Assembly (NCBI GenBank): GCA_041686075.1
Contig: JAWLEO010000017.1
Span: 12,256-76,255 of the forward strand
Length of the DNA stretch: 64,000 nucleotides
Source: Bacteroidales bacterium
Lineage (GTDB): Bacteria; Bacteroidota; Bacteroidia; Bacteroidales; VadinHA17
Direction: 5' to 3'
The notes under the pieces were generated by a model that ran no database searches, was not told the DNA's origin, and saw only the letters and a list, made by a program, of their open reading frames with translations. This document shows, one piece after another, positions 30,861-54,249 of this stretch. Position 1 is the first letter of the stretch. The number at the start of each line of letters is the position of its first letter. Both the position numbers and the translations under genes were made by a program.

Positions 30861-34663
<3,803 letters not shown>

Positions 34664-34881: not shown

Positions 34882-36198
34882 TTATGGATTCCCCTGTCTT
34901 TTATTTTTTTCAACAAGGTATTTAAAGGGGTATATGAATCTTTCAATCAACCTCATATCTTCGGTTATTATTTCAGCCCTGCCTGACATATTCTGGGTGA
35001 AATCAAGTTTTTTACCATAAAATGTTGATAAGCCCTCAGGTAGATTAACATCCAGCACATATGAATTATCCTGTGGCACCAGTGATCGTGTTTCCACTTT
35101 TCCCTGCACCATTCCATATTCCAGGTAAGGATATCCTTCAAGCTGGATATTTACATCCTGTCCTTCTTTCACCTTACCCGAGCCTGCCATAGGGATCATG
35201 ATGCGGGCAATTATTTCATTTTCACCTTCCGGCACAACGGTCATCACTGTTTCTCCCTCTTTTACAGTTTGATTTTCTGACCAGTACCTTGTAAAAGTCA
35301 CATTACCGTCAATAGGTGCAAGCAAAAGGTAATTTTGTATCCACCACTCCATTCTTGCCTTGAGTTTCATAAGCTCATCATCAAGATTTGAGAGTAATTT
35401 TTGTCTTTCTTCTTCGCGTGCGGCAGTCAGATCCTGTAATTCTTGTTTTTTAGATGCCAGATCAATGCGCCTTGAAGCAGCTTCCAGGACAACCTGTACA
35501 AGTTCAATTTTAAGGGAATAAAATTTCTGTTTCGAATTTTCGAGTTGAGCATCAGGTAATATGTCCTGAGTATGGAGAAGTGAGTCCCTTAGATATTTTC
35601 TCCTTTCCACTTCAAGGTTAGACCCTGTAAGGGCTTCTTTACTTTTTAACTGCCTTATATAATCTTCAATGCTTTTTATCTCCTCCTTTACAGCCCCGAT
35701 TTTTTTTCCGTAGTAATCAATCTCAATATGATTCTTATAGTTATAATAGCTTTTACGAAAAGCCGAATATTGATCCTGTATCTCTCCAAGAACAGAATTA
35801 TCGGGCAGTTGACGGTTAATAGCCTTATATCTTGATGATATATCCTCTGTTTTTATGGAGTCGAGCATTGAACTCAACCACTGTATGCTTTCATATGAAG
35901 CGGTGGTCTCCATTACTCCCAGGATGGATCCTGCAGTCACCTGTTCACCATCGCTCACAAAAAGGTGTTCAATTTTACCGGAAATCCTTGCCACAATATT
36001 TGCAGGTGGTTTTTCTGTTGTTATTACAGCTTCGGCCCTGATTATATATGGATATTTTATAAGCCATGAAAATATCAAAAGTAATATGATTACTGTGGCA
36101 ACTATAGCTGTACCCCATCTAATAAGAGACCCGGGCGGTTTATTCATTATATCTTCCACGGGTCTTGAGTACCTTATTTCATGTAATTGTCTTTTCAT
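34882..36198 (-). CDS. HlyD-family membrane-fusion (periplasmic adaptor) protein of a peptide exporter
   Basis: Single N-terminal TM (WGTAIVATVIILLLIFSW), a long coiled-coil centre and a beta-barrel C-terminus. I chose the ATG at 36198 (the track start at 36207 is TTG). It lies 5 nt downstream of the ABC gene stop. Confidence 0.7.
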   Translation of the reverse strand: MKRQLHEIRYSRPVEDIMNKPPGSLIRWGTAIVATVIILLLIFSWLIKYPYIIRAEAVITTEKPPANIVARISGKIEHLFVSDGEQVTAGSILGVMETTASYESIQWLSSMLDSIKTEDISSRYKAINRQLPDNSVLGEIQDQYSAFRKSYYNYKNHIEIDYYGKKIGAVKEEIKSIEDYIRQLKSKEALTGSNLEVERRKYLRDSLLHTQDILPDAQLENSKQKFYSLKIELVQVVLEAASRRIDLASKKQELQDLTAAREEERQKLLSNLDDELMKLKARMEWWIQNYLLLAPIDGNVTFTRYWSENQTVKEGETVMTVVPEGENEIIARIMIPMAGSGKVKEGQDVNIQLEGYPYLEYGMVQGKVETRSLVPQDNSYVLDVNLPEGLSTFYGKKLDFTQNMSGRAEIITEDMRLIERFIYPFKYLVEKNKRQGNP

Positions 36199-36203
36199 AT
36201 ACT

Positions 36204-38390
36204 TCAACTACCAAGTTCCAGCTGTTCACGTACCAGATTATAATATACACCTTTTTTATCTATCAGCTCATTATGAGTCCCGCTTTCTATCATACGGCCT
36301 TTATCAATAACCATGATATTATCGGCATTACGCACCGTACTAAGCCTGTGTGCAATTACCAGCACTGTCTTGCCCGAGAAAAACTCATCGAGGTTTTCAA
36401 CTATCTGCTTTTCATTAACGGCATCCAGTGAATTTGTAGCTTCGTCAAAAAACAGGTATTCAGGATTCTTGTACACTGCCCTCGCTATTAATATCCGTTG
36501 TTTTTGTCCCTGACTCAATCCATGACCATTATGCCCTATTCTTGTATTTATCCCCAGGGGCAGCGTCTCCACAAATTCACTTATATTAGCTATTGAGATG
36601 GCTTTGTTTAATTTCTCCCTGTCGATTATATCCACACCGGGACTAATATTATTGGCTATACTATCAGGAAAAATATAACCATCCTGCATTACCACCCCCA
36701 CCCTGCTCCTCCATAATTTGAGGCTTAAGTTTTTGAGGCGGGTGTCACCAACCATTATATCACCTTCAACAGGCTTATAGAATCCGAGTATTAGTTTTAA
36801 TAAGGTAGTTTTGCCGCTACCGCTGGTGCCGACCAATGCAGTAACCTTACGTTCAGGTATCACTATATCAATATCCTTCAGTACATAGGGTGAACGTGGT
36901 CCTTCATATTGGAATGAAAGGCTATTCACATATATACTTTTGTTTGCCGGCAGGCTTTTCACTTTCATTTCCTCTTCTGATTCTTCAGGTTGACTGGAGT
37001 GTACCTCCGAGATCCTGTCCAGGCTCATCCTGGCGTCCTGGGCTGTCCGGAAAAAGACGACCATCTGGTTTACAGGGATATTTAACTGGCCTATAATAAA
37101 TTGCACGGCAAGCATCATGCCGAGAGTCATACTCCCTGATAATACGGCAGTGGCAGCAATAATTGTAATAATAATATTTGAGGCCTCATTAATAAATTTC
37201 CCCCCGGCAAGCTGGTATTGGGAAAGACTCATCGCCTTAACCCTTGTCTTGAAGAGTGAAGCCTGGATATTCTCCCAGTCCCATCTCTTACTTGTTTCGC
37301 TCTGTGTAAGCTTTATTTCCTGTATACCGGTGATTATATCAATCAGCCTGGCATTGTTATCAGACAATTGCTTAAACCTTCTATGATCAAGCTGGGCACG
37401 CGACCGCATGAAAAAGGACACCCAGGCAATGTAAGCAGTTGTACCCGCAATGAAGACAAGCAATATGGTGATATTGTAAATTGCCAGCACGATGCCAAAA
37501 ACCACCAGATTAACAAAGGAAAACAGTACACTTAATGACGTATTACTGAGAAATGATTCGATGCGTTGATTATCTTCTATCCTCTGCAAGAGGTCGCCAC
37601 TTAATTTAGTATCGAAATACGACAACGGCAATGTCATCAATTTATATAGGAAACCTGATATTATAGCCACATTAACCCTTGTGCTTATATGCAATAAAAG
37701 CCAACCGCGTACAAACTCAACTGTCATCCTGCCTATAACCAGGGCAAGTTGTGCGAACAGTATAAGGTAAATAAATCCAAGGTCATTGTTATTTATTCCT
37801 ATATCTATAATCGATTGTGTAAGAAAGGGGAAAATCAATTGTATGAGACTCCCTATAAACAGGCCCAGAAAGATCTGGAAAAAATACTTTCTGTACATAT
37901 TTACATACCGGAAAAGAAAACCAAATCCCGATTTTCTTTTTTTTGTTTCTTCCTGATCATAAAATTCAGGGCTTGGTTGAAGTATCAATACCAGCCCCAC
38001 CTTCTCCTCGTCGATCTTTGTCGTAGCCCAGTTTTTCTCAAATTCATCCCTTGAATATTTTATCAGGCCTTTTGCGGGATCGGCAACATAAACTGTGTTT
38101 TTCTTTATCTTATACACTACGACAAAATGCTTTTGCCTCCAGTGCACAATACAGGGTAAGGGAGTTTCTTCAACCAATTTATTGAAGGGTATGCGCACAC
38201 CTATAGTCCTGAATCCTATCGCCTCCGCCGCCTCGGATATACCCAGGAAAGACACTCCTTCCCGGCTTATGTAGCTCTTTTCCCTCAAATCAGTGAGGCT
38301 GAACTTTTTACCATAAAAGCGTGCAACCATCTGTAGACAGGATGGACCACAATCCATTGCATCTGCTTGCCTTTCGAAAGGGAACGACAT
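36204..38390 (-). CDS. Peptidase-C39-domain ABC transporter (double-glycine leader cleaving peptide exporter)
   Basis: N-terminal RQADAMDCGPSCLQMV (catalytic Cys context) and KHFVVVYKI...VYVADPA (His/Asp context). Six-TM domain. Walker A GTSGSGKTT, signature LSQGQKQR, Walker B LFFDEATN. I chose the ATG at 38390 (track start is TTG at 38396). Confidence 0.85.
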   Translation of the reverse strand: MSFPFERQADAMDCGPSCLQMVARFYGKKFSLTDLREKSYISREGVSFLGISEAAEAIGFRTIGVRIPFNKLVEETPLPCIVHWRQKHFVVVYKIKKNTVYVADPAKGLIKYSRDEFEKNWATTKIDEEKVGLVLILQPSPEFYDQEETKKRKSGFGFLFRYVNMYRKYFFQIFLGLFIGSLIQLIFPFLTQSIIDIGINNNDLGFIYLILFAQLALVIGRMTVEFVRGWLLLHISTRVNVAIISGFLYKLMTLPLSYFDTKLSGDLLQRIEDNQRIESFLSNTSLSVLFSFVNLVVFGIVLAIYNITILLVFIAGTTAYIAWVSFFMRSRAQLDHRRFKQLSDNNARLIDIITGIQEIKLTQSETSKRWDWENIQASLFKTRVKAMSLSQYQLAGGKFINEASNIIITIIAATAVLSGSMTLGMMLAVQFIIGQLNIPVNQMVVFFRTAQDARMSLDRISEVHSSQPEESEEEMKVKSLPANKSIYVNSLSFQYEGPRSPYVLKDIDIVIPERKVTALVGTSGSGKTTLLKLILGFYKPVEGDIMVGDTRLKNLSLKLWRSRVGVVMQDGYIFPDSIANNISPGVDIIDREKLNKAISIANISEFVETLPLGINTRIGHNGHGLSQGQKQRILIARAVYKNPEYLFFDEATNSLDAVNEKQIVENLDEFFSGKTVLVIAHRLSTVRNADNIMVIDKGRMIESGTHNELIDKKGVYYNLVREQLELGS

Positions 38391-38529
38391 AGCCAATAAT
38401 AGTTAAGCCTGTAAATATATCTATTATTTGATTCTATTCAAACATAGTGCTCTTACAGCTTATTATTGATATTAAATCATTGAGTTAATCCTTTGGAAAT
38501 AGTATATTTGCCTCAAATATTACTATTAA

Positions 38530-39096
38530 GTGTTAAAAAAACACTCTGATAAGAAATTAATAGAGGGAATACGAAAAGGGGACGACAAATCTGTTAATTA
38601 CCTCTATGAATCATTTTTCGATACCATAAAATCTCATGTACTGAAAAATACAGGAACGGAAGATGATGCATATGATATATTCCAGGATGCCCTGATGGTA
38701 CTTTTCAAAAAGGTACAGCTCAATCACCTTGATGAAAATACTGATATCAGAGCTTATGTCTTTGGTGTTTCCAGAAACTTATGGTATGAGCATCTCCGAA
38801 GGAAGAGGAAAAGTGTAGAAATGAATGAGGAATTGGTTGACGACTGTGATCCCTCGAAATTGCTTGATACACCCCTGGAACAAATTGTGCAGCGTTCTTT
38901 TCTTAAACTCAAGACTGAATGCCAAAAAGTCCTCAATATGGCAATTAAGGGATATGAATACAGTGAGATAGCACGTAAAATGAAATACAAATCAGAAGAA
39001 TATGCGCGTCGAAAAAAGTATCTGTGTAAGGAAGCACTTATTAAAATAGTAAAAGCCGACCCTGAATACAGTGACTATACAGACCTGGATTTGTAA
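38530..39096 (+). CDS. ECF-like sigma-70 family RNA polymerase sigma factor
   Basis: Region 2 (DAYDIFQDALMVLFKK...YVFGVSRNLWYEHLRRKRK) and region 4 HTH (YEYSEIARKMKYKSEEYARRKKYLCKEAL). GTG start. A TATATTTG -7 box lies at 38503-38510. Confidence 0.75.
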   Translation: MLKKHSDKKLIEGIRKGDDKSVNYLYESFFDTIKSHVLKNTGTEDDAYDIFQDALMVLFKKVQLNHLDENTDIRAYVFGVSRNLWYEHLRRKRKSVEMNEELVDDCDPSKLLDTPLEQIVQRSFLKLKTECQKVLNMAIKGYEYSEIARKMKYKSEEYARRKKYLCKEALIKIVKADPEYSDYTDLDL

Positions 39097-42080
39097 TAAT
39101 ACCAGCCAGCAAAAAAGAGGATGACAACAAGCATTGCCATTAGCAAATACCTTTTAACAGGAAAATAGACCGGGGCGTCATTGCCCATTATCACCAGGGT
39201 GCTCCAGAAATATGGGTGTGACCTCATCTGATCTGCATCTTCCAGGTAGTCCATTCTTGCTTTACGCAACGATTCACTTTTTGTGAGTCCTTTCTTAAGA
39301 TTATAATAAAAATCCTTAACTATATCGCTCCCGGAGCGGTCATCCACCTCCCACAAAGACATTATCACACAAGGACTTCCGGAATAGAAAAATCCCCTGG
39401 CCAGGCTCATAACGCCCTCACCGGCCTGTAGATAACCGGTACCGGTATTACAGGAACTGAGAAAAACCATTTTAGCTTTAATAGGTATGTTGTAAACCTC
39501 ATAGGTATTAAGCATTCCATCTTCAAGGGTATCGTTTTCCATGTTGAAGAACATCTTAGAGTACATAGGTTCATTATCGTTCAACCGTGTGTGCATGGCA
39601 AGGTGGATCAGGTCTCCTTCGAGTACCTTTGATTTAAAAACGCTTTCAGTGGCCTTATCATCAATATACAGTTTCCCTCCAAGCAGTTTATTTATATATA
39701 TTGCTTCCTCCCTTGCTCCAGGTATATTGGCCAGGCTGTCACGGTAATATTGCCTACTTTCCATAAGTTCTTCAATATCTAAACTCCCGCTATAGTCCGG
39801 GGCGAAAGTCAGCACATTGTTAGATGCACTGCGGCGGGACGATAATGCTTCAGACAGTAATGTACCGGAGTATTCATATATTATCTCGAAATCCTTGATG
39901 AGATAAGTCAAATGACGGTAATTTACTTCCTTATACCCGGGCATTTCGCTTATCAGTGTTTCAAAGGGTATATAAGAAAGCAGATCATCTGCAGATATTA
40001 TTAACCTATCGGAGTTCAAGTAATCCCGGACAGGGAGTAACAGCTTTTTATACAGATTGAAAGCCAGCTCAACATACTCCCTGTACTGTTCGCCTGCACC
40101 ACTTACTATTGCCGGCCCGGTCAGAATATCTCTGAAAGTAAGGATCATTTCCCTGAATTCATCACCCACGGGCACCGATTTAATCTTAAAACAGTCTTTG
40201 TTTATAAGAAATATATATAAAATACTGTCAGACAGGTAGTATTCAATGAAGTTGCTATTGCTGGTAATACTGTTTCGTATATCATCTACAGTGCTTACCG
40301 ATGTATTATATTTCAAGTTATAATACCTTGGGTACTCCTTTTCAAAAACACCTACAAGGGAATCATATTTTGCAGATGCCAGCGCGCTCAAAATATGGTA
40401 ACGGTCAATAAGTTCCCTATCCGGTTTTATTTTTGCTGATTCATTGTATATAACCTCGTTGTAGTCTCTTATATCACCAATCAGTGCCCTTTCAATTGCG
40501 GCTAGATCGGGCGGGAGGTGGAAATTCATTGCCCTGATATTCCTTGTTGCAGTTAGGAGGCCGGCAGCTTTTGACTTTTCTGAAATTGCAAAAGCCCGGT
40601 CAAGGTACTTTTCTTCACCGGTAAGATTGAACAGCTCATTTAATATGGACAATGTCATATCATAAGCATTGATATACCGTCCTGACAACATGCTCCTGCT
40701 ATCGTCCTGCTGTATCCTGAGCCTGGTGCTTTCAATATTTTCTATAGCTTGCTCAGCTGCGTTTAAAGCACCTTTGAGATTCTGTATGTCATGTCCCACC
40801 CTGTATGTTTGATATAATATCCTGCTTTTGTGCATGAATGATGCCGTCCTGATCTTTGATGACAGCACCAGGGAATCATTAATTATATCATTGATATATC
40901 TTAAAGCTTCTGCATATCTGCCGGTATTATACATCAATCGTGATAAATACAGGGTGGCCTCACTTTTAACTTTGTTATCCTGCGGATTACCGGACATATA
41001 TGATTTAATAATGCCTGACATATCCCCTGCCCTATCATAATCCTTTCTGTAATACATCAGAAAGTCACAAAAAGTCAGTAACTGCACAATGTAATCTCTA
41101 CTCCCTTCTCCATATTCATTTTCAGCTTCTTCGACTGCTAATAATAAATAATCTTCTGCCTTATCCAGCATTTCTATTTCAGCCAGTAAATAGGCATAAT
41201 TCTCATATACCGAATTAAGAGTCCTTCCCCTGAATCCTTTTGAATCAATTAATTTCAACGCTTCCCGGAAAAAATAATCTGCCCGGTCCAGGTTTTCAAG
41301 CTCATAATTACACACAGCCAATGAATTATATAAGAGTAAAAGCTTGGTGGGATCGAGGCCTACGCTTTCCCCGGCAAGGGAATATGCAATTTCAAAGTTT
41401 CTATTTGCCCTGTTATAATCAAGGTTATTGATATATGACACTCCGGAATTATAATATAGATCAGCCAGCATCCCTCTCGCAATTTCATCTGGCTCCCTTT
41501 CCACAATCTGTATACCCCTGAGTGATGTTGATAAGGCACGTTCATACATGTTTAAATCAATATACAAAGCCGAAAGATTGAGTAAGGTTCTTAAGAGAAA
41601 GGGTGAAGCCATTCCAAAAAGTTTTTCCCTGGTGGAAAGAGCTATTTCGAGATTTACACGAGCCTCCTCAGGCCTGCCTGTATACATGTACGAAAGAGCC
41701 AAATTGCTTCGAGCCCTTGCATAAATATCATCAATACTATCTGAAGCAATCCTGTATCTTATAGACTGGACCAGCATTTCAATTGCCTCATTGTATGAAT
41801 TCTTTAAATAATTATATGTTCCGGCATAGTAATAACAATCCGATATAAGAATGCTATCGTTGACGAGGCCAGAGTCAAGGCAGGTGCGTATCCATTCATA
41901 ATATTCCCCTGCTTCCGGACTGCTTTTCAGCATTGCTGATTTGAAATTATCGAGTTTTATTATTATTAGGGTATCTCGCCTGGCTCCATGATAAATATTA
42001 CTGGCTGTTGATTTTATGCCCGAATTGAAACAAAAGACAGCACTAATCAGTATGACAGTATATCTGAATAAATCTTTCAT
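39075..42080 (-). CDS. TPR-repeat CHAT-domain (caspase-like) protein with N-terminal signal/anchor and C-terminal TM helix
   Basis: Long array of TPR-like repeats. The C-terminal CHAT core has LIHLAMHT (His) and VFLSSCNTGTG (Cys) and ends HPYFWSTLVIMGN. The C-terminal TM is YLLMAMLVVILFFAGWYYY. The N-terminus is MKDLFRYTVILISAVFCF. Confidence 0.8.
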   Translation of the reverse strand: MKDLFRYTVILISAVFCFNSGIKSTASNIYHGARRDTLIIIKLDNFKSAMLKSSPEAGEYYEWIRTCLDSGLVNDSILISDCYYYAGTYNYLKNSYNEAIEMLVQSIRYRIASDSIDDIYARARSNLALSYMYTGRPEEARVNLEIALSTREKLFGMASPFLLRTLLNLSALYIDLNMYERALSTSLRGIQIVEREPDEIARGMLADLYYNSGVSYINNLDYNRANRNFEIAYSLAGESVGLDPTKLLLLYNSLAVCNYELENLDRADYFFREALKLIDSKGFRGRTLNSVYENYAYLLAEIEMLDKAEDYLLLAVEEAENEYGEGSRDYIVQLLTFCDFLMYYRKDYDRAGDMSGIIKSYMSGNPQDNKVKSEATLYLSRLMYNTGRYAEALRYINDIINDSLVLSSKIRTASFMHKSRILYQTYRVGHDIQNLKGALNAAEQAIENIESTRLRIQQDDSRSMLSGRYINAYDMTLSILNELFNLTGEEKYLDRAFAISEKSKAAGLLTATRNIRAMNFHLPPDLAAIERALIGDIRDYNEVIYNESAKIKPDRELIDRYHILSALASAKYDSLVGVFEKEYPRYYNLKYNTSVSTVDDIRNSITSNSNFIEYYLSDSILYIFLINKDCFKIKSVPVGDEFREMILTFRDILTGPAIVSGAGEQYREYVELAFNLYKKLLLPVRDYLNSDRLIISADDLLSYIPFETLISEMPGYKEVNYRHLTYLIKDFEIIYEYSGTLLSEALSSRRSASNNVLTFAPDYSGSLDIEELMESRQYYRDSLANIPGAREEAIYINKLLGGKLYIDDKATESVFKSKVLEGDLIHLAMHTRLNDNEPMYSKMFFNMENDTLEDGMLNTYEVYNIPIKAKMVFLSSCNTGTGYLQAGEGVMSLARGFFYSGSPCVIMSLWEVDDRSGSDIVKDFYYNLKKGLTKSESLRKARMDYLEDADQMRSHPYFWSTLVIMGNDAPVYFPVKRYLLMAMLVVILFFAGWYYYKSRSV

Positions 42081-42304
42081 ATAAAAAGTTATATGCTAAA
42101 AGCTATCAAATATCAAAATAAGAACTCAAAAAGCCAAAAAAATACCTCAATCTATTTAACTGTATATCTGCCTTTTACGAACCATCTCAAAAAAATGTTC
42201 ACTTTTTTATGTCACAAAACGGTTAAATACGACATGTATATATGTAACGTAATTAGATAACCCGATTAATTTAAAAAAGTGTAACCAACAAAAAATTTAG
42301 AAAA

Positions 42305-42445
42305 ATGAAAACACTGAATCAGGAAAATTTTGAGAATTTCAAAGACTTTTTACTTTCAGACGAAGAAATGATTCTTGTTCGAGGTGGTGACGATGATGGC
42401 GACAGAGGAATGACAGTACCTCCTATCACAGAACCTGAAATCTAA
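42305..42445 (+). CDS. Double-glycine-leader precursor peptide (46 aa; predicted 18-aa acidic mature peptide)
   Basis: Not in the ORF track (below its size cutoff). My translation is MKTLNQENFENFKDFLLSDEEMILVRGG|DDDGDRGMTVPPITEPEI*. Positions -12 to -1 (LSDEEMILVRGG) fit the LSxxELxxIxGG leader consensus. A C39 ABC exporter lies 3.9 kb away. Confidence 0.65.
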   Translation: MKTLNQENFENFKDFLLSDEEMILVRGGDDDGDRGMTVPPITEPEI

Positions 42446-42671
42446 ACACAGGATCAAAGCCAGCTTATTAAAGGAAATACGGCGATCTGTAAAATATTGT
42501 AACCGCAACATTTCGGTTAGAGCTAAATAAAGCATAGCCGGAAAGGTAAGGATATGGCATAAATATAAGGTGCCACAGTTACAGGGTGCATTGCATCCGG
42601 ATGGTAACGGCAGGATGTGAAAATATATATTTATCTGTCCACATTATGCTTATAATGTGATGGTTAAGATG

Positions 42672-42695
42672 GATATAAGAAATGATATAAGAAAT
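42672..42695 (+). repeat. Perfect 12-bp tandem direct repeat (gatataagaaat x2) 33-56 bp upstream of the anti-sigma-like gene
   Basis: Read directly: 42672-42683 is identical to 42684-42695. Confidence 0.8.
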
Positions 42696-42727
42696 ATTAC
42701 TAATTCGCATGAAATATTATAAAAATT

Positions 42728-43465
42728 ATGAAAAAAATTGAGTTCACCCGCTTTATCGAGAGATATCTCGAGGGCAAGATGCAAAGCTCCGAAAAAAAGT
42801 GGTTCGAGGCGGAGCTTGAGGGCAATCCAGGTTTAAAGAAAGAACTGGAATTGCGCAGGAATGTAGACAAATATGTTGACAACCAGGATGCTATAGCATT
42901 CCGACAAAGCCTGATGAATGCTGAAGCCAGGCACAGAAAAGCTGCTGCCAGAAAAAGGGCTGCCACAAAGCAGATAATCCAGTACGCGGCTATATTTGCG
43001 GGCTTGATATTAATCGGCGCCGTCGGCTTTTATATTTTCAGGAATGACAACAATGGTGACATTGCAAGTACTTTTAAACCTGAGTATACTCCGCTTGCAT
43101 CATACCGTTCATCATCCGCAGAGCTGGATAAGGCATATACCAGGGCAACAGAATACTATAATTCAGGCAATTATACTGAAGCTATCAAGTGGTTTAATAT
43201 GATAGTGAACCCGGACATGCAGGTTGAATTCCTTAAAGGCTCATCCCATATGCAAATCAGTCAGTATATCGAAGCCATAGGGTCATTCACCAAGGTTGTT
43301 AAAGATAATGATAACCTCTTTATTGAAGATGCCAGGTTTTACCTGGGTGTTTGTTATATCCAAACAGGTCAGGAAAATAAGGCAAGAGAGTTGCTGGAGG
43401 ATATAATCAACTCTGAAAGCAGGCACAAGAAAGAAGCAAGAAAACTTCTAAGAAAAATCAACTAA
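42728..43465 (+). CDS. Single-pass membrane protein with periplasmic TPR domain (anti-sigma-factor-like)
   Basis: The cytoplasmic N-terminus FIERYLEGKMQSSEKKWFEAELEGNPGLKKELELRRNV is the pattern seen in Bacteroidota anti-sigma-like proteins. TM helix IIQYAAIFAGLILIGAVGFYIF. C-terminal TPRs (YNSGNYTEAIKWF, FYLGVCYIQTGQENKARELL). Confidence 0.55.
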   Translation: MKKIEFTRFIERYLEGKMQSSEKKWFEAELEGNPGLKKELELRRNVDKYVDNQDAIAFRQSLMNAEARHRKAAARKRAATKQIIQYAAIFAGLILIGAVGFYIFRNDNNGDIASTFKPEYTPLASYRSSSAELDKAYTRATEYYNSGNYTEAIKWFNMIVNPDMQVEFLKGSSHMQISQYIEAIGSFTKVVKDNDNLFIEDARFYLGVCYIQTGQENKARELLEDIINSESRHKKEARKLLRKIN

Positions 43466-43491
43466 GAGGATCTAGTTAACGCAAGGAGAAA

Positions 43492-44319
43492 ATGTTTATG
43501 ACTTTTGGAAATAATATGGAGAAAGAAAGAAGACATAGTGAGAATGATAAGTCAGAAAATATAAATCCTGTACATAATACCGATATGCTGAATACTCCTT
43601 CCATATTAACCGGCTTATCTCACGAAGTGCGAACTTACATGAACTCAATAGTAGCATTTACCTTCCTGAGCAATAATGATAACTGTACGGCAGAACAAAG
43701 GAATGAGTATAATAAGCATATCATGAATTCATGCGACCAGCTAATTACATTATTTGATAATTTTCTTGATTCAGCTTTAATTGATTCCGATGAACCCAGG
43801 ACAACCATCACCAGATGCGAGCTTCGGTCTTTCATGAAAGACCTTCTGAGTGATTTAAAAAATTCAATCAGCAGGTTCGACAAGAAAAAGGTTACACTGC
43901 TGCTGGATGAACGATCCGGGAATGATTCCATGTTCATTGACAGGGAGAAGATTAATCGGGTTTTGAGAAATCTCTTTTTCAATGCGCTGGAAAATACGGA
44001 ATCAGGATATATTAAAATGGGTTACAGGAAGCAAAAAAGCAAGGTTGAATTTTACGTTATTGATTCAGGCAATGCTTACACTAAGAACCGGGAACTGCTT
44101 ACCTGTGAAGACCTAACTAAATACATTGGTGAACACCAGAACACATTTACCACTGTGTCATTCTTATTTTCACAAAAACTCATTGAAAGCATGAACGGTG
44201 AATTATGGATACGGCCAAATGGTGTGGACGGGACTGCTATGTATTTCTCGGTCCCTGACCACACTAATGCTATAAAAAAGAATAAGTCTGAAAGTATTTC
44301 ATCGAGAATCGCAATCTGA
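43492..44319 (+). CDS. Soluble, sensor-less histidine kinase (HisKA + HATPase_c only)
   Basis: H-box LSHEVRTYMNSI, N-box RNLFFNALENT, G-box-like VIDSGNAY. No TM or sensor domain. No response regulator in the window. Confidence 0.6.
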   Translation: MFMTFGNNMEKERRHSENDKSENINPVHNTDMLNTPSILTGLSHEVRTYMNSIVAFTFLSNNDNCTAEQRNEYNKHIMNSCDQLITLFDNFLDSALIDSDEPRTTITRCELRSFMKDLLSDLKNSISRFDKKKVTLLLDERSGNDSMFIDREKINRVLRNLFFNALENTESGYIKMGYRKQKSKVEFYVIDSGNAYTKNRELLTCEDLTKYIGEHQNTFTTVSFLFSQKLIESMNGELWIRPNGVDGTAMYFSVPDHTNAIKKNKSESISSRIAI

Positions 44320-44408: not shown

Positions 44409-46391
44409 TTATTTTGATATTTTCAGTATGCGTATATCGGTGCGCCTGTTTTTTCTTCTTCCTTCTTCATTGGTATTGTCATAGAGTGGAACTGCTTCAC
44501 CATAGCCTTTATAATGAAGGCGATCAGGAGATATACCGCGTTTTACGAGATAATTTTTCACAGCCAGCGCACGTTTCTCGGAGAGGACAAGGTTATGTTC
44601 ATCAGATCCTGTTGAATCAGTGTGTCCTCCTATCTCAACTACCAGGTCTTCATTGCTTGCAAGCAAATCAAAAAGTTTTTCCAGCTCGGGTAAGGATTGA
44701 TCACGCAGCTCCCATGAATCAAGGGCAAAAAATACATTATGCAGAGACATCTGTTGTCCAACCTGTATAGGGCTGAGGGAGATAGTTTTTTCAAATGGTT
44801 CAATTGAACTGTGTTCACCTTCCAGCATAAAATTCTCTGAATAGAAAAGGTAGTCTTTGCTGCTAACATTTATTCCGTAATTCTGACCTGTGGGTAAGCA
44901 TACCAGGAAATTACCTCCTGAATCGGAAAATGACTGAATCACTCGTTTACCTGTACTGAGGTTTATCAGTTCATACGTAGCTTTTAATGGCCTGCCCGTA
45001 ACTTTATCTATAACACTTCCTTTCAGGTAAGACACCGGGTCAGGCCTGAGAGATTCAGGCATTTCAAAATAGAACAGGTCCCTACCCTTCATTGTATTTA
45101 TTTTTGATGAGAAATAAGCAACTTCTCCCGAGGAATTGATTATAAGTCCTATTTCATCTGTCTGTGTGTTTATTGGATAGCCAAGGTTTTCAGGTTCTGA
45201 CCATGTACTGTCTTCTTTGTTAAATCTCGACATAAAAATATCAAAACCTCCCATACAGGGTCGACCATTAGATGAAAAATACAATGTTTTACCATCAAAG
45301 TGAATGAAAGGAGACATCTCATCACCCGGTGTATTGATCACCTCACCCAGGTTCACCGGCTCCGACCACCGGCCGTCTTTAACCTGGTTACTCACCCAGA
45401 TATCCATCCCCCCATAGCCACCAGGGCGGTTACTTACAAAGAAAAGTTTTGAGCCATCAGATGAAAGAGATGGTTGTGATTCCCAGTTAGCTGTATTTAT
45501 CGGTCCACCAATATTTATACCCTTCTTCCATCCCTTATCTGTCCTTGCTGAATAGTATATATCACAACTGCCTTTACCATCCTCCCTGTTGCATGCTGTA
45601 TAATACATATAATTACCAGCCGGTTCGAGTGTCTGAGCACCTTCATTATATGATGTATTCAACGGTGGCCCTGCATTTCTGGCAACAGTCCATTCACCGT
45701 CAATCCTGTAACTGTAATAAAAATCCTCCTGGTACTTCTTACCCATCAGGCTACTGCTTCGTATCGTATTTTGCCTGGTAAAGAGCAACATATTATCGTC
45801 TGCAGTTATCGCCGGCCAATATTCATCATCACCGGTATTAATTGATTCCCCAAGATTAACAGGATTAAAATCAACAGGACTCTTAATTGCTTCCAGCGCA
45901 AAATCACAATCCCTGATGTACTTTCTTGCTTTTTGTGCATTAATGGATTTTTGACCTGTCAGATCCAGGTATAATGAGAAACTGCTTCGTGCTCCCGAAT
46001 AATTACCGCTAAGGAATTGCACCTCCCCATATCCGAACCAGGCCGGGATAAAGAAGGTGGAATCAATAGTTAATGCCTGGCGGTAGGCATTGGCTGACTG
46101 GCGGTATTTAAGCATATCCTTTGATAGCTCAGCAAGCAACAGGTGGGCTTCAATGAATCCAGGGTCTTTCTCAACTGCATCAAGAAGATGTCGCTCAGCT
46201 TCTTTATAATTAATAAAATCGTAAGCTTGCTTACCATCGTTATATGCCTTCAGGGCTTTATTTGATTTTGTATGAAGCTCCTGCGACAACAGACAGTATG
46301 GCTGACCAATAATAATAAGCAGCAACAAAACCCTAATAAGAGTATTTAAGGTATACCCATGTATTTGTGACTTTGAATTGATATTGACCAT
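44409..46391 (-). CDS. OmpA-family protein with TPR, TolB-like beta-propeller repeats and C-terminal OmpA peptidoglycan-binding domain
   Basis: The C-terminus IGGHTDSTGSDEHNLVLSEKRALAVKNYL is the OmpA_C motif. Repeated W..P.NLG..IN motifs indicate WD40-like/TolB repeats. N-terminal TPRs. Confidence 0.8.
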   Translation of the reverse strand: MVNINSKSQIHGYTLNTLIRVLLLLIIIGQPYCLLSQELHTKSNKALKAYNDGKQAYDFINYKEAERHLLDAVEKDPGFIEAHLLLAELSKDMLKYRQSANAYRQALTIDSTFFIPAWFGYGEVQFLSGNYSGARSSFSLYLDLTGQKSINAQKARKYIRDCDFALEAIKSPVDFNPVNLGESINTGDDEYWPAITADDNMLLFTRQNTIRSSSLMGKKYQEDFYYSYRIDGEWTVARNAGPPLNTSYNEGAQTLEPAGNYMYYTACNREDGKGSCDIYYSARTDKGWKKGINIGGPINTANWESQPSLSSDGSKLFFVSNRPGGYGGMDIWVSNQVKDGRWSEPVNLGEVINTPGDEMSPFIHFDGKTLYFSSNGRPCMGGFDIFMSRFNKEDSTWSEPENLGYPINTQTDEIGLIINSSGEVAYFSSKINTMKGRDLFYFEMPESLRPDPVSYLKGSVIDKVTGRPLKATYELINLSTGKRVIQSFSDSGGNFLVCLPTGQNYGINVSSKDYLFYSENFMLEGEHSSIEPFEKTISLSPIQVGQQMSLHNVFFALDSWELRDQSLPELEKLFDLLASNEDLVVEIGGHTDSTGSDEHNLVLSEKRALAVKNYLVKRGISPDRLHYKGYGEAVPLYDNTNEEGRRKNRRTDIRILKISK

Positions 46392-46969
46392 TCAGTATGG
46401 TTTTTAACGTATTCAACTATTAAGGGTATTATTTTCTTAAAATTGCTCCACTCTGGCTGCAGATAGAGTTTGCAAGCTAAAGGTACCCTGTTTTTGTATT
46501 TTTCAGCCCAGGCAAAATCATCTTCCTCTCTTATTATCACCTTCAATTCTCCTGCCAAAGTACAAATGTTTTTGTAAGGAGGTCGATTTTTTTTTGGAGA
46601 AAGGCAAATCCAATCCCAGCAACCAGTTAATTGATGAGAACCTGAAGTTTCAAGATAAGTTTTAATATTCGATTTTTTTAATTTTCTGCATAAGGGATCG
46701 AGGTTATACATCAAGGGCTCCCCGCCGGTTAAAACAACCGAATCAGCACCTGAATCATCAACAGCCCTCATCAGTGAATCAATATGGGTCATTTTATGAT
46801 ACCTGGGATCCCATGCAAATTTGGTGTCACACCAGCTACAACCAACATCACATCCACCCACACGTATAAAATATGCAGCCTTGCCTGTATGAAAGCCTTC
46901 ACCCTGTATTGAATAGAAATGTTCAACCACCGGAAGGTAAATTCCCTCTTTACCTCTTTCTTCCTTCAT
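46346..46969 (-). CDS. queE: 7-carboxy-7-deazaguanine synthase (radical SAM)
   Basis: FYSIQGEGFHTGKAAYFIRVGGCDVGCSWCDTKF and VVLTGGEPL parallel QueE over the full ~207-aa length. Confidence 0.8.
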   Translation of the reverse strand: MKEERGKEGIYLPVVEHFYSIQGEGFHTGKAAYFIRVGGCDVGCSWCDTKFAWDPRYHKMTHIDSLMRAVDDSGADSVVLTGGEPLMYNLDPLCRKLKKSNIKTYLETSGSHQLTGCWDWICLSPKKNRPPYKNICTLAGELKVIIREEDDFAWAEKYKNRVPLACKLYLQPEWSNFKKIIPLIVEYVKNHTEWSISIQSHKYMGIP

Positions 46970-50360: not shown

Positions 50361-51466
50361 TCTATCAATGGCCTTACAGCATCAAGTTCAATTTCAAACA
50401 TTAAATCATCCCTGCATACCGTGCCACCAACAGAAAGAAAATATGAAGGATCAATTTCCTTTGACAGACAGTAATCTGTTAAATGCTTTACATGACCGGG
50501 ATCAGGGAAGTAAGCAATAGCACGTACAATATCATCCCACTTGTAATGCTCACTTATCAAGATAGATTTTACAACTCCCATGGTATGCTCTATTTGTTTT
50601 ACAACGTTTTCCTTATATAGTGTTTCTCCGGTGCTGCCTATTGAAGCTGTTCCACTTATTACCAGTCTTTTTGATGTTTGAAAACTGATCTCCACAGCCC
50701 TGCTGAAGGAGCTCTTATAGTTGATGGCATCACATTGCATAGGGGAATCAACCATTCTAACCATTTCTTTTTCATCCTTCGGATTAATCGCAAAAGCACT
50801 GAGCGAAAGGTTCTTCTTATAAATATTGCTAAGGCCTATGCCGGTGCTGGAAGGAATAATTCCTTCAAAGATATTTTCTTCTGTGAAAAAATCATTCCGC
50901 CCTTTGTTTAAGATATCATACCAGTCGAGGATATTATTAATATAAAGCCAGGTACGGACCAGATTATTATAGCTGACATTGTTATCCTTAAGTATTTTCC
51001 CGAGTGATTCGAAGGATGAAAATGCCTCCATGTAATAATTATCCGACTTGCTTGCCCGGATATTACTTATATAATAAAGTTCCGAGCCATAATGATCAAA
51101 CACTTTAACAGTGGTATGTTCTGGTGCATTTAATGATTTAACCGCCCTGTCATTGGCACAAATCAATTGTATCTGGTAACCAGATGAAACATTATGGTGG
51201 AGGAAGATCATAGTGCCAAGCCTGTTGAAAGGAGCATTAATAATATTAGCACCAGGACCAGTACCAAAACCAAAAGCAAAACCAATTAGCACCTCCAGAT
51301 AATTGTCCTTTAGGTATGATGATAAATATTTGGTAGCCTTACAAATATTGCCATCGGGCTGCACATCTAGATTAATATAGAAAAACGAATGATCCGGATA
51401 TTCTTCTTCTACTATGATTAAATCTGATTTTTCGCAGATAGAAATTTTTTCCCTGTTAATGTTCAT
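50348..51466 (-). CDS. FkbO/Hyg5/XanB2-like chorismatase-family protein (RidA-fold C-terminus)
   Basis: RTWLYINNIL, IPSSTGIG, FSRAVEI and VISGTASIGSTGETLY match the family blocks R.WNYIP.I, PAATGIG, FSRA and ISGTASI. The ATG at 51466 overlaps the upstream gene's end by 11 nt. Confidence 0.5.
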   Translation of the reverse strand: MNINREKISICEKSDLIIVEEEYPDHSFFYINLDVQPDGNICKATKYLSSYLKDNYLEVLIGFAFGFGTGPGANIINAPFNRLGTMIFLHHNVSSGYQIQLICANDRAVKSLNAPEHTTVKVFDHYGSELYYISNIRASKSDNYYMEAFSSFESLGKILKDNNVSYNNLVRTWLYINNILDWYDILNKGRNDFFTEENIFEGIIPSSTGIGLSNIYKKNLSLSAFAINPKDEKEMVRMVDSPMQCDAINYKSSFSRAVEISFQTSKRLVISGTASIGSTGETLYKENVVKQIEHTMGVVKSILISEHYKWDDIVRAIAYFPDPGHVKHLTDYCLSKEIDPSYFLSVGGTVCRDDLMFEIELDAVRPLIDQDS

Positions 51467-53831
51467 TTTTTTCAAGCTGTTCTAACCTGCTTAGGATTGC
51501 CTGTTTCTGTTCATCTGCCAGATTCTCATTCTTGAGTGCTTTTTCGAGAATAATTTTTGCCCTATCCAGATTACCTTCATTGATGTAAATGCCTGACAGA
51601 AGAAAGTAAGAATCAAAGAAAGAACCATCCTCATCTATAATATCCTCAAGTATTTTCTTTGCAGAGGCCGTTTTGTCCGATCTAACAAGGTAAAAGGCAT
51701 GTGTATAGGTATATTTCATATTTCCGGGATCCCATTTCATTGCTCTCCGGCTAAGGTCAACGGCCTTCTCCAGGTCATCATCTGATACAAGTACTGCAAG
51801 GTTATAAGCAGCTACTGCATTTTCATCGCTAACAGCCATCAGTCGCTTAAAGTGTTGTTTGGCCATCTCGCTATTCCCTGTTTCACCATATAAGAGTGCC
51901 AGGTTTAGCAATGCCGCCTCATGGTTGGGAGCATAAGAAAGAACCCTGGTAAACAATTCCTCAGCCCTCTTATAATTACCCAGTATTGAATTAACATAAC
52001 CGGCATTAACCATTGGCATTATGGCTTCAGGATATATCTTTATCGATGTATTATATGCTTCCAGTGCCTTTTCAAAGTCATTCACATTGCTATAGTAATT
52101 CCCAAGATTATAATGTGCCGACCAGTCGTCAGGGTGAGTGACCAGTGAATTTTCATATTCAGCCAGTGCAGCCGATATAATTGAACTGTTTGATTCATCG
52201 ATGTAATTATCAGGATATGAACTTAGAGAAAATGCTGCATTCAGTCTCACAAGCCTGTAGTCGTCCTTAACGAGCTCCAAAAGACGCTCGAAGGCCTGTT
52301 TTGAATTATCGGCGTAAAGGCTGTGGGCAGCAGCACCTCTAACCAGTGGTGATTCATGATAAGTAAGCTTCAGCATCACATCCCATTTTGAAGGATCATC
52401 GCAGTTCTCCAGTAACCTGATGAATGAAGTTGTATAAACTTTATCAAACCTTTCTGATTCAAGACCTGTTAATATTGTATCAAGATCAGACCAGTCGCCT
52501 TCCCTGGCTTTCCGTATAAGATATCCATTCCGAATTGTCTCAGCCTGGTACTCACGCTTATGTGTATCCTGAATTACTTTTTCGGCCCATTCAGCTGTCA
52601 TATCATCATGGCAGATATTGCAGGCATTTGGTGAACCAAAAGCTATTGTGGCCGCGGGCATAGGAGGACGGAATGAATGATCACTTCTGTCCATTCGGGC
52701 AAAAGTTGTTTTGGGCATATGGCAAGCAATACACTTACTTCCCTCAGAATCAGGTTTATGAAATGTATGAGCACTAACATTATTTACTCTGTCTGAGTGA
52801 CATGGCATGCAGGCATCATTGGCGTTTTCCCCTCCAAAACGATACCTGCCGCTGGAGGTATGACAGCTTACGCAGTGCATACCACTGCTTTCAGCACATT
52901 TGTTCATTTCCCATGTGGTCATGGTATAGTTCTCACCCAGGTCCCGACCATCGGCATAAAAGTCAGGGTTTTCGAGTGTAATGAGATCAAAGTAATCGTA
53001 AAATGGTGCACCGGGCTTATATGACTCGGCAATAACCGTTGCCTTGGCATGGCATGAACCGCAGGCAGCATTATGTTGCTCCGGGGTAAATATACTTGTT
53101 TGTACCAGTTTAAGATCTTCAGGCATATTCCCCTCCCCCGCTTTAACACATTCTACTATGTGTTCATAACTTGGCCCGTGGCATGTTTCACAGTTAATTC
53201 CCGGTTCCCGCCACTTTGTATTATAGGTGTTATCCTCCAGGTCATAATTAGTTTCAAGCTGGCTTACATGACAATTATAGCATGTAGTATTAAAAGTATA
53301 GAGGTGATTCATCCAGTCAAGGGGAGCGTCTTCCATAGCCTCAAAATGTCTCACCCCGCTTTCCGGGTTATTATACCAGGTATCGGTATCACAGTCGTAA
53401 GCAAGAGGCAAAACCTGCAGTCGACCACGTGATAAAGGTGTTAGGAAATAATATATATATTTACCACCCATAGTATGAATGGCAGGATATTCATTAGTTT
53501 CACCCGACCTCTTCATTTCCTCAAAAACAAGGGTGTCATTCTTCAACAGAACCTTAAATTTATCAGTACCCACCTTTATTTCCTGGTTAAATGACCTGAT
53601 ATTCTCTTCAATAAAATCACCTGTAACAGGCTGCATTGCCAGGCCGTGATACGAGTCATGCCATAAATCATAAAACCTTTCGTGACATGGACGACAGCTT
53701 TCGCTACCCGAATATGCAGCGACTTCATTTTGCAGCCTGTCGGATTTTATACTGTGCAGAACGGCAATTGACACAACGCCTGTAACCATTACTATTAAAA
53801 TGAAAATAATAAGAATTAATCTGTTTTTCAT
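51456..53831 (-). CDS. Membrane-anchored octaheme c-type cytochrome fused to HEAT/TPR repeat domain
   Basis: Eight CxxCH motifs: CRPCH, CYNCH, CETCH, CGSCH, CVSCH, CMPCH, CIACH, CNICH. N-terminal TM helix LILIIFILIVMVTGVVSIAVL. C-terminal TPRs. I chose the ATG at 53831 (track start at 53873 is TTG). Confidence 0.75.
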   Translation of the reverse strand: MKNRLILIIFILIVMVTGVVSIAVLHSIKSDRLQNEVAAYSGSESCRPCHERFYDLWHDSYHGLAMQPVTGDFIEENIRSFNQEIKVGTDKFKVLLKNDTLVFEEMKRSGETNEYPAIHTMGGKYIYYFLTPLSRGRLQVLPLAYDCDTDTWYNNPESGVRHFEAMEDAPLDWMNHLYTFNTTCYNCHVSQLETNYDLEDNTYNTKWREPGINCETCHGPSYEHIVECVKAGEGNMPEDLKLVQTSIFTPEQHNAACGSCHAKATVIAESYKPGAPFYDYFDLITLENPDFYADGRDLGENYTMTTWEMNKCAESSGMHCVSCHTSSGRYRFGGENANDACMPCHSDRVNNVSAHTFHKPDSEGSKCIACHMPKTTFARMDRSDHSFRPPMPAATIAFGSPNACNICHDDMTAEWAEKVIQDTHKREYQAETIRNGYLIRKAREGDWSDLDTILTGLESERFDKVYTTSFIRLLENCDDPSKWDVMLKLTYHESPLVRGAAAHSLYADNSKQAFERLLELVKDDYRLVRLNAAFSLSSYPDNYIDESNSSIISAALAEYENSLVTHPDDWSAHYNLGNYYSNVNDFEKALEAYNTSIKIYPEAIMPMVNAGYVNSILGNYKRAEELFTRVLSYAPNHEAALLNLALLYGETGNSEMAKQHFKRLMAVSDENAVAAYNLAVLVSDDDLEKAVDLSRRAMKWDPGNMKYTYTHAFYLVRSDKTASAKKILEDIIDEDGSFFDSYFLLSGIYINEGNLDRAKIILEKALKNENLADEQKQAILSRLEQLEKNEH

Positions 53832-53865
53832 AGCACTTTTTATGATTACTGTAGTGCCAAATGGC

Positions 53866-54249
53866 TCATTCAAATAAGCTTTCGTCCCTTACCAGTAGCA
53901 GTATACTTGATTGCGATACAACCACATATTTTTCCTTATTGAATTCTATCTCCACAGCTGTGTTCTGCATATAAACAGCAAGGTCACCTTCCTTTGGTTG
54001 TAGTGGTACATATTGTGGCTCCTCACTTCTTTTCTTCCATGGCTCATCCACATCGGTAATGGAGGGGATAGGGTATCCAGGGCCCACCTTCAAGACGTAA
54101 CCTAGCTGTACCTTTTCATTCTCATGCACTCCGGGTGGGAGATATAGTCCTGATTTAGTTTTGGATTGTGGAGTTTTGGGTTTGATCAATATCCTGTCTC
54201 CGACAACTATTAGTTTATTCAGATCTTTTTCATCTAAAAGCACATTCAT
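53866..54249 (-). CDS. GroES/Cpn10-like family protein
   Basis: VVGDRILIKPK...TKSGLYLP...GYVLKVGPG follows the GroES beta-barrel pattern, with a longer C-terminus than GroES. Confidence 0.5.
   Translation of the reverse strand: MNVLLDEKDLNKLIVVGDRILIKPKTPQSKTKSGLYLPPGVHENEKVQLGYVLKVGPGYPIPSITDVDEPWKKRSEEPQYVPLQPKEGDLAVYMQNTAVEIEFNKEKYVVVSQSSILLLVRDESLFE

Follow-up and report, generated by a model that had tools for sequence, protein, structure and literature searches.

A candidate split TPR-CHAT protease and anti-sigma switch beside a double-glycine peptide in uncultured Bacteroidales

The stretch of Bacteroidales DNA analyzed here (64,000 nucleotides in full, the window in what follows) carries, between positions 34,882 and 44,319, a block of genes around a sigma factor of the extracytoplasmic function (ECF) type. 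Next to it lie a protease built of tetratricopeptide repeats (TPR) and a CHAT domain, a short peptide precursor with a double-glycine (GG) leader, an anti-sigma-like membrane protein of 245 residues, a histidine-kinase-like protein and an exporter, while the remainder of the window is chromosomal DNA of the ordinary housekeeping kind. An earlier reading of the bare sequence (the sequence-only reading) had assembled these parts into a candidate peptide-sensing circuit, and the open reading frames (ORFs) and domains that it listed are all recovered by Pfam and NCBIfam at the same coordinates. The features of the block are as follows.

34882-36207, reverse strand: HlyD-family membrane-fusion adaptor (Pfam HlyD_3, NCBIfam type_I_hlyD); another possible ATG start lies at 36198.
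36204-38396, reverse strand: peptidase-containing ABC transporter (PCAT) with C39 peptidase, ABC membrane domain and ATPase (Pfam Peptidase_C39, ABC_membrane, ABC_tran).
38411-38419, reverse strand: TATATTTAC, a variant of the housekeeping-type -7 box, 5' of the exporter operon.
38503-38510, forward strand: TATATTTG, a Bacteroidetes sigma-A -7 box, 19 nt 5' of the sigma start codon.
38530-39096, forward strand: ECF-type sigma factor, 188 residues, GTG start, divergent from the exporter (Sigma70_r2, Sigma70_ECF, TIGR02937).
39075-42080, reverse strand: predicted extracytoplasmic TPR-CHAT protease, 1001 residues (Pfam CHAT, PF12770, E 1.1e-51).
About 39594-39596 and 39453-39455, reverse strand: predicted catalytic His829 (motif IHLAMHT) and Cys876 (motif LSSCNTG) of the CHAT domain.
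42201-42238, forward strand: peptide-gene promoter, in which TGTCACAAA-N11-CGACATGTA comes after a T-tract.
42260-42269, forward strand: ACCCGATTAA, a motif of the 5' untranslated region (UTR) conserved across loci as ACCC(T)GA(A/T)TTA.
42305-42445, forward strand: double-glycine precursor, 46 codons, with leader (42305-42388) and predicted 18-residue core DDDGDRGMTVPPITEPEI (42389-42442).
42500-42519, forward strand: hairpin 3' of the peptide gene, probably acting as terminator or attenuator.
42728-43465, forward strand: single-pass anti-sigma-like protein, 245 residues (Pfam TPR, one transmembrane (TM) helix, AlphaFold2 model).
43492-44319, forward strand: cytoplasmic, sensor-less histidine-kinase-like protein, 275 residues (HisKA, HATPase_c; no TM helix).

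The exporter operon and the sigma gene diverge across 133-139 bp, depending on the choice of start codon (139 bp in the sequence-only reading), and the CHAT gene converges on the sigma gene as proposed there, the 3' ends of the two overlapping by 22 bp (39075-39096). Many of the related loci likewise have these two genes abutting or overlapping.

Relatives of the block were retrieved with the sigma factor as anchor. Sigma homologues number 448 in total (at least 444 genome matches), and neighborhoods were examined in 80 loci from different species-level genomes, all of them Bacteroidales-type metagenome-assembled genomes (MAGs). The counts given for each gene refer to the loci of the window's clade that cover its site; inside this clade the identity of the sigma factor to the window's copy drops to 44%. 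The CHAT gene is present in 63/63 loci, the anti-sigma-like gene in 61/61, the exporter gene in 67/68, the kinase-like gene in 59/60 and the HlyD gene in 52 of 62. The housekeeping flanks (YidC, PyrG, DUF349, PorE-like and QueE) are as syntenic in this clade as the module genes, so the clade by itself cannot delimit the module; synteny in the 80 sigma-anchored loci was set aside as sole proof of linkage, and outgroups were sought.

The outgroups consist of one locus (L083) reached through its CHAT homologue and ten further loci found by a metagenome search with the L083 sigma factor. Their sigma factors are about 30% (28-34%) identical to that of the window. In L083 a CHAT homologue (26% identity) adjoins an operon of a sigma factor (27% identical) and a 246-residue protein built like the 245-residue protein. 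The same three genes, for sigma factor, anti-sigma-like protein (233-246 residues) and TPR-CHAT protein (1008-1080 residues), are adjacent in 9/9 outgroup loci with enough flanking sequence; their stop and start codons often overlap, and the anti-sigma-like gene stands directly 3' of the sigma gene within one operon. This triad stays linked in four divergent lineages whose gene orders differ.

Window: sigma (forward), CHAT (reverse), peptide (forward), anti-sigma-like (forward).
L083: anti-sigma-like (reverse), sigma (reverse), CHAT (forward).
L088: sigma (forward), anti-sigma-like (forward), CHAT (reverse).
L089 group: sigma, anti-sigma-like and CHAT (all forward).

Linkage that persists through rearrangement argues for functional coupling of the triad, and on this comparison of gene positions we consider it likely that the sigma factor, the anti-sigma-like protein and the TPR-CHAT protease act as one functional unit. 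The outgroup loci (about 165 kb) contain no C39 exporter, HlyD, kinase or GG-leader ORF, the search pattern for the last recovering the peptide in 64/65 loci of the window's clade. The triad is thus the core, and exporter, peptide and kinase are lineage-specific additions; as the outgroup triads do without peptide and exporter, the peptide is not needed for the basic input of the triad. The sequence-only reading had joined all of these parts in one module and had offered their co-occurrence in related genomes as a check. Its triad stands, being linked beyond the window's clade and in all four lineages, while exporter, peptide and kinase drop out as core components: exporter and GG ORF are linked only within the clade, where the flanks are equally syntenic. 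TPR-CHAT proteins are not always found in sigma triads, since among the homologues at 24-27% identity that of L083 is accompanied by sigma and anti-sigma-like genes and those of L084 and L085 have no adjacent sigma gene. In L092 (1949-8049) two tandem TPR-CHAT paralogues follow the sigma and anti-sigma-like genes. An acidic lipoprotein-like ORF of 63-67 residues lies about 800 nt upstream of the sigma gene in L089, L091, L093 and L095, and Cys-containing secreted proteins of 130-159 residues are encoded next to the CHAT gene in L083 (9664-10056) and L086 (9265-9744). It may be a general feature of triads to have a small exported product as a partner.

The product of 38530-39096 has the characters of an ECF (group IV) sigma factor. 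It matches Sigma70_r2 (E 1.3e-7), Sigma70_ECF (E 1.8e-5) and TIGR02937 (43.3 bits, cutoff 42.9), lies under the cutoffs of every named subfamily and has many orthologues with a precomputed match to Sigma70_r4_2. Regions 2.4 and 4.2, which bind DNA, hold residues that are invariant across our alignment (A1).

The CHAT protein begins with a hydrophobic signal sequence, continues with about 14 TPR-like repeats (some 600 residues, poorly conserved) and the CHAT domain (672-967), and ends with a TM anchor (973-991) and a basic tail. From the signal sequence, the C-terminal TM helix and its basic tail, most of the protein is expected in the periplasm; the CHAT domain directly precedes the anchor, which would bring the active site close to the inner membrane on its outer face. 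Both ends, signal peptide and anchor, are shared by the outgroup proteins. The dyad of His829 and Cys876 is invariant among 58 orthologues, the distant homologues and the outgroups. In agreement with the extracytoplasmic location claimed in the sequence-only reading, signal peptide and anchor are thus predicted and conserved, and the catalytic dyad is intact in every homologue compared. The AlphaFold2 model (mean predicted local distance difference test, pLDDT, 84.9; predicted template-modeling score, pTM, 0.79) has as its best Foldseek matches Csx29 (E 3e-15), separases and DdvA (E 7e-13). A phmmer search against the Protein Data Bank (PDB) returned only TPRs of the kinesin-light-chain type, so the kinship with DdvA and the Csx29-containing craspase is visible only at the level of the fold. 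Sequence and modeled fold agree in pointing to a caspase-fold (clan CD) protease of the CHAT type.

The 245-residue protein comprises a cytoplasmic N-domain of three or four helices (1-80), a TM helix (86-104; 42983-43039) and a periplasmic module of three TPRs (130-245). The TM helix, preceded by a basic stretch, is found in 61 of 62 orthologues. In the AlphaFold2 model, helices 6-15, 20-32, 34-50 and 53-90 precede the membrane segment, the three-TPR module is modeled with confidence and a linker of low confidence (101-128) joins the two. The membrane-adjacent disordered part of this linker (residues 105-128; 43040-43111) contains a conserved aromatic motif and Arg127 (43106-43108), which is invariant (Lys in one outgroup) and is followed by a small residue, Ser or Gly, even at about 20-25% identity. 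We regard the linker near Arg127 as a candidate site-1 cleavage site. Foldseek matches of the model are to TPRs only, those most like it being the peptide-binding SycD/PcrH/IpgC, YbgF and RPAP3-Hsp90. The designation as a putative anti-sigma factor comes mainly from its position right after the sigma gene in the outgroup operons; anti-sigma families are also the only hidden Markov model (HMM) families that recur for its N-domain. Of the description given in the sequence-only reading, the single membrane pass and the periplasmic TPR domain stand, and the anti-sigma-like N-terminus has sub-threshold HMM matches only.

On the chromosome the peptide gene is flanked by the CHAT and anti-sigma-like genes. 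Its product consists of MKTLNQENFENFKDFLLSDEEMILVRGG followed by DDDGDRGMTVPPITEPEI, the predicted cut falling after GG, and the leader is canonical, L(-12)xxxE(-8)M(-7)xxV(-4)xGG. No other ORF in the window has such a leader. With a leader of the general form L(-12)xxxE(-8)[LM](-7)xx[IV](-4)xGG, a core and a PCAT neighbor, 42305-42445 has all the marks of a double-glycine precursor. A homologous ORF occupies the same place in all 63 loci that cover the site (64 distinct sequences), and codon diversity is higher at position 3 (0.50) than at positions 1 (0.27) and 2 (0.20), with 63% of single-base codon differences being synonymous. This coding-type substitution pattern identifies a protein-coding gene under purifying selection, so that the 46-codon ORF singled out in the sequence-only reading is real. 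The leader is conserved as ...EEMIxVRGG, with the VRGG cleavage motif in 60/66 peptides. The cores are 13-22 residues long, proline-rich and nearly free of Cys, carry a net charge of -5 to +1, and have a conserved C-terminal half; the last residue is hydrophobic, in 51/66 cases Ile. Three core classes can be told apart: PPxTEPEI, which is acidic and belongs to the window's clade, PPPxKI and GPTRPPxIIE[LF]; the former claim that the mature peptide is acidic and unlike a bacteriocin holds for the acidic, proline-rich class of the window. A hairpin is found at the equivalent place 3' of the peptide gene in relatives, with differing stem sequences.

Two known types of locus were considered for this peptide and rejected. 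A radical-SAM-modified ribosomal peptide (RiPP) of the TIGR04149 type of Bacteroidota, which would have a radical-SAM/SPASM maturase beside it, is disfavored by the leader match (E 0.038, 13.9 bits, cutoff 25) and by cores devoid of Cys. The sole radical-SAM gene nearby, 46346-46969, encodes QueE of queuosine synthesis, which bears out the earlier statement that 34882-44319 holds no maturase. A class II bacteriocin locus, for which a cationic or amphipathic core would be expected, is disfavored by the charge, proline content and length of the cores, and the block has no conserved gene for a small membrane protein that could serve as immunity gene.

The presumed exporter of the peptide is the PCAT encoded by 36204-38396, so classified by its N-terminal C39 domain with Cys and His (Pfam, E 2.5e-38), ABC membrane domain and ATPase (E 4.9e-29 and 2.3e-29). 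The catalytic Cys (DCGP) and the His motif of the C39 domain are kept across 67 exporter orthologues. HlyD is missing from one subclade (L038, L040, L051, L053, L055, L058, L063, L067 and L079 have no HlyD gene beside the exporter), and there the peptide may be released into the periplasm only. The same subclade has a distinct core class, NG...GPT[RK]PPxIIE[LF], wherever the peptide site is covered (all but L051). In L075 the DUF349 gene stands directly beside the sigma gene, with neither exporter nor HlyD, and the same MAG (L054) holds a second sigma-CHAT contig.

The peptide gene has a promoter of a special kind. Across loci this consists of a T-tract and TGTCACAAA-N11-(T/C)GACATGTA; of 64 unique sequences, 63-64 keep the two halves of TGTCACAAA-N11-TGACATGTA and the spacer of 11 nt without change. 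The window, for which chance predicts 0 occurrences, has a single copy of the motif, as has each related locus; sought 5' of the sigma, exporter, CHAT, anti-sigma-like and kinase genes, the motif was present at the peptide gene only. Read as TGTCAC, 16 nt and ACATGT, it fits the usual ECF -35/-10 spacing in our reading. Its geometry and invariance fit an ECF-dependent promoter (-35 and -10 elements, 16-17 nt spacer), and recognition by this particular sigma factor is what we infer. We therefore lean towards the sigma factor as the driver of the peptide promoter, on the strength of the sequence pattern. The sigma and exporter genes present another picture: of 77 unique intergenic sequences, 75 have TAnnTTTG 5' of the sigma gene, at 19-27 nt from its start codon, and all 77 have TAnnTTTA 5' of the exporter operon. 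These being housekeeping-type -7 boxes, and the peptide motif being absent, control of the exporter by the sigma factor is unsupported. Of the two targets proposed in the sequence-only reading, the peptide gene is thus the one that remains plausible. The peptide promoter is of a non-housekeeping type and the exporter is apparently constitutive. The anti-sigma-like and kinase genes have no evident promoter box of their own, and with the hairpin that follows the peptide gene this would allow attenuated read-through from the peptide promoter into both. The 5' UTR of the peptide gene has no match in Rfam; its motif ACCC(T)GA(A/T)TTA, seen in the window and in L003-L082, lies in the loop of a hairpin (AGTATTGAAA...TTTCAATACT) in one subclade only.

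These observations can be combined in a DdvA-like split switch with a sigma-driven, exported peptide, to which we assign a probability of roughly 0.5. The precedent is DdvA/DdvS of Myxococcus, where a fused anti-sigma and TPR-CHAT protein gates an ECF sigma factor (PMC11506125). In the window, the TPR-CHAT cysteine protease would face the periplasm, held by its C-terminal anchor at the outer face of the inner membrane. A periplasmic cue would cause it to make a site-1 cut in the membrane-adjacent linker of the anti-sigma-like protein, near Arg127; a site-2 protease and cytoplasmic proteases would then clear the remainder and set the sigma factor free. The peptide promoter would be the likeliest local target of the freed sigma factor, the peptide gene lying inside the triad. 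The apparently constitutive C39-ABC exporter would cut the precursor after GG and export the core, with HlyD present where export spans both membranes, and the product would be a short, unmodified, proline-rich linear peptide. The part of the CHAT protein as site-1 protease, taken by analogy from DdvA, is tentative, and we stop just short of favoring it. The locus makes specific predictions: a cut near Arg127, catalysis by H829 and C876, and the promoter TGTCACAAA-N11-TGACATGTA.

Several points weigh against this split-switch reading. The N-domain of the 245-residue protein matches anti-sigma HMMs below threshold throughout (zf-HC2, E 0.07; NF052375, E 0.002; NF010501, E 0.009), sequence and profile searches with it against PDB, Pfam and NCBIfam gave nothing significant, and its binding to the sigma factor is putative, suggested by gene position. 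The peptide-type promoter is absent 5' of the sigma gene, so the usual ECF autoregulation is missing. The motif was not found in the outgroup loci, and hence there is no independent tie between motif and sigma family; in another reading the motif is an activator site made of two imperfect direct repeats of 9 bp, with a weak -7 box. Finally, with flanks that are equally syntenic, the link of exporter, peptide and kinase to the triad comes from position and logic, not from independent lineages.

The alternative that survives best goes beyond the split switch and closes it into a full autoinduction loop, in which the exported peptide would bind the periplasmic TPRs of the anti-sigma-like or the CHAT protein, the CHAT protease would cut the anti-sigma-like protein and the sigma factor would make more peptide, a quorum-sensing-like circuit. 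Much of the peptide speaks for such a loop: its gene lies within the triad under a special promoter, and its short, linear, Cys-free cores with a conserved C-terminal half and hydrophobic end are typical of signaling peptides, not of toxins. The periplasmic domain of the 245-residue protein is most like three-TPR modules that bind short or C-terminal peptides (SycD/PcrH/IpgC, RPAP3-Hsp90), and the HlyD-less subclade would keep the peptide in the periplasm. Within the block it is also the triad proteins that evolve fastest, and the classes of peptide shift with them; both peptide class and TPR divergence, however, track the phylogeny, so co-evolution is inseparable from shared descent. As outgroup triads lack peptide and exporter, and the exporter lies outside the control of the peptide-type promoter, we consider the complete loop rather unlikely. 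We know of no peptide quorum sensing in Bacteroidota, and if the peptide were the input, this phylum would gain its first described peptide-pheromone system, and the CHAT protease would be the first known to act as a ligand-gated site-1 protease.

The second alternative concerns the promoter and brings in the kinase-like protein, whose gene begins 26 nt after the anti-sigma-like gene and is absent from the outgroups. HisKA and HATPase_c domains with neither TM helix nor sensor domain agree with the sensor-less histidine kinase of the sequence-only reading; the H-box, N-box and G1 box (DSGxG) are conserved, and the G2 box is degenerate, being replaced by a non-glycine sequence. The best match among solved structures is RetS, a non-canonical kinase of Pseudomonas aeruginosa (E 5e-11), in which the ATP-lid (G2) region is similarly degenerate; RetS has a periplasmic sensor and receiver domains, whereas the 275-residue protein consists of the dimerization and histidine phosphotransfer (DHp) domain and the catalytic domain only. 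The C-terminal tripeptide of the 275-residue protein, IAI, is shared by 90% or more of 58 orthologues. A response regulator partnering this kinase could be the activator of a weak housekeeping promoter at the peptide gene, acting on the two 9-bp direct repeats with no dependence on the sigma factor. TGTCACAAA and TGACATGTA do agree at 5/9 positions (TGnCAnnnA), lie 20 bp apart and are followed by a degenerate -7 box (TAnnWWTG); the kinase gene is conserved in the block, and the sigma gene is not autoregulated through the peptide motif. Yet there is no response regulator within +/-10 kb in any locus, the ATP lid of the kinase is degenerate in the manner of RetS, and halves and spacer that stay the same base for base in about 64 species are a more usual trait of sigma -35/-10 elements than of activator sites, which makes a sigma-independent activator improbable.

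No more probable is a third alternative, by which another protease inactivates the anti-sigma-like protein and the CHAT protein processes the exported peptide or envelope proteins, or serves as TPR scaffold or receptor. The dyad of DdvA is at rest in the absence of the signal, when dyad mutants have no phenotype (PMC11506125), and a TPR array of about 600 residues could bind other partners; set against this are the strict conservation of the His/Cys dyad, the operon that CHAT shares with sigma and anti-sigma genes in outgroups, and the place of the CHAT domain immediately before the membrane anchor, where the conserved anti-sigma-like linker is close by. The least probable alternative, that exporter and peptide are a stand-alone bacteriocin- or RiPP-like module and the kinase an unrelated gene, all beside the triad by inherited synteny, would account for the position-conserved housekeeping flanks and for outgroup triads that have none of the three, but sits poorly with a peptide gene placed between the CHAT and anti-sigma genes in 63/63 loci, with the lack of immunity gene and maturase, with acidic or neutral, proline-rich cores of 13-22 residues unlike known class II bacteriocins, and with a regulated, non-housekeeping peptide promoter next to an exporter that looks constitutive.

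Three other genes of the window deserve mention. The gene at 32516-34663, which stands beside the module in most relatives, encodes a 715-residue protein with five DUF349 repeats and a long acidic/basic N-terminal region, for which no NCBIfam family was matched. An 805-residue protein (51456-53873) combines multiheme cytochrome c motifs with HEAT and TPR repeats, and a 739-residue trypsin-like peptidase (22568-24787) carries a type IX secretion sorting domain.

Comparison with known systems shows which parts of the split switch have precedents. Regulated proteolysis of anti-sigma factors is familiar from E. coli, where RseA is cleaved by DegS (site 1) and then by RseP to free sigma-E, and where DegS is activated by C-terminal peptides. 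The window would share with it the two-step removal of a single-pass anti-sigma factor, cut in the periplasm at site 1 and then at site 2. DegS, however, is a PDZ serine protease, whereas the would-be site-1 enzyme of the window has the clan-CD caspase fold with TPR sensors, and the locus has no gene for a site-2 protease. In Gram-positive bacteria, a C39-ABC exporter and its accessory protein produce GG pheromones (ComC/ComAB/ComDE and class II bacteriocin loci) from a precursor with a GG leader. Those systems and the window have in common a mature peptide that is short, linear and unmodified, and a specially regulated peptide promoter; in contrast, the locus has neither membrane sensor kinase nor response regulator nor immunity gene, its host is Gram-negative, and its candidate receptor is the set of TPR, anti-sigma and protease parts.

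Nearer relatives of the triad are found among CHAT proteases. In the craspase-Csx30-CASP-sigma system, the TPR-CHAT protease Csx29 cleaves Csx30, an inhibitor of the ECF-like CASP-sigma (PMC10028731). Relief of an ECF-type sigma factor through cleavage of its inhibitor by a TPR-CHAT protease is what we propose for the window, and Csx29 is the best structural match to the CHAT model. Craspase, an RNA-guided cytoplasmic enzyme, belongs to a CRISPR effector complex, while the protease and putative inhibitor of the window are membrane-anchored and face the periplasm, and no cas genes are found at the locus. With DdvA/DdvS the window shares an ECF sigma factor, an anti-sigma factor (putative in the window) whose single TM helix joins a cytoplasmic domain to a periplasmic part, a TPR-CHAT region that lies in the periplasm and has the His/Cys dyad, and a proposed site-1 cut by CHAT on a flexible membrane-adjacent linker. 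DdvA is a single polypeptide, and the window, like all related loci, encodes separate proteins of 245 and 1001 residues; with its halves in separate genes, the pair would resemble DdvA in function and is not a member of the DdvA-type family. It also lacks the CHCC zinc motif of the DdvA type and has no phmmer similarity to DdvA. The settings differ as well: DdvA belongs to Myxococcota and to a CBASS/CRISPR defense island, the system of the window to Bacteroidota, with a GG-leader peptide as its candidate local output.

The statement in the sequence-only reading that no characterized system combines these parts holds for the full set and overlooks DdvA/DdvS and craspase as precedents. Our literature searches on CHAT and ECF in Bacteroidetes and on C39 exporters combined with ECF sigma factors turned up neither this arrangement nor the split, membrane-anchored TPR-CHAT/anti-sigma form; the combination of the triad with a GG-leader peptide and PCAT appears undescribed. 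For DdvA no candidate ligand is known, while the window offers one in an exported, unmodified peptide with an invariant, dedicated promoter. The split extracytoplasmic CHAT-sigma logic is conserved in many uncultured Bacteroidales and in distant genome and metagenome lineages, and with this conservation the pairing of CHAT protease and sigma factor, known so far from DdvA and craspase, looks like a general signaling theme rather than an oddity of defense islands.

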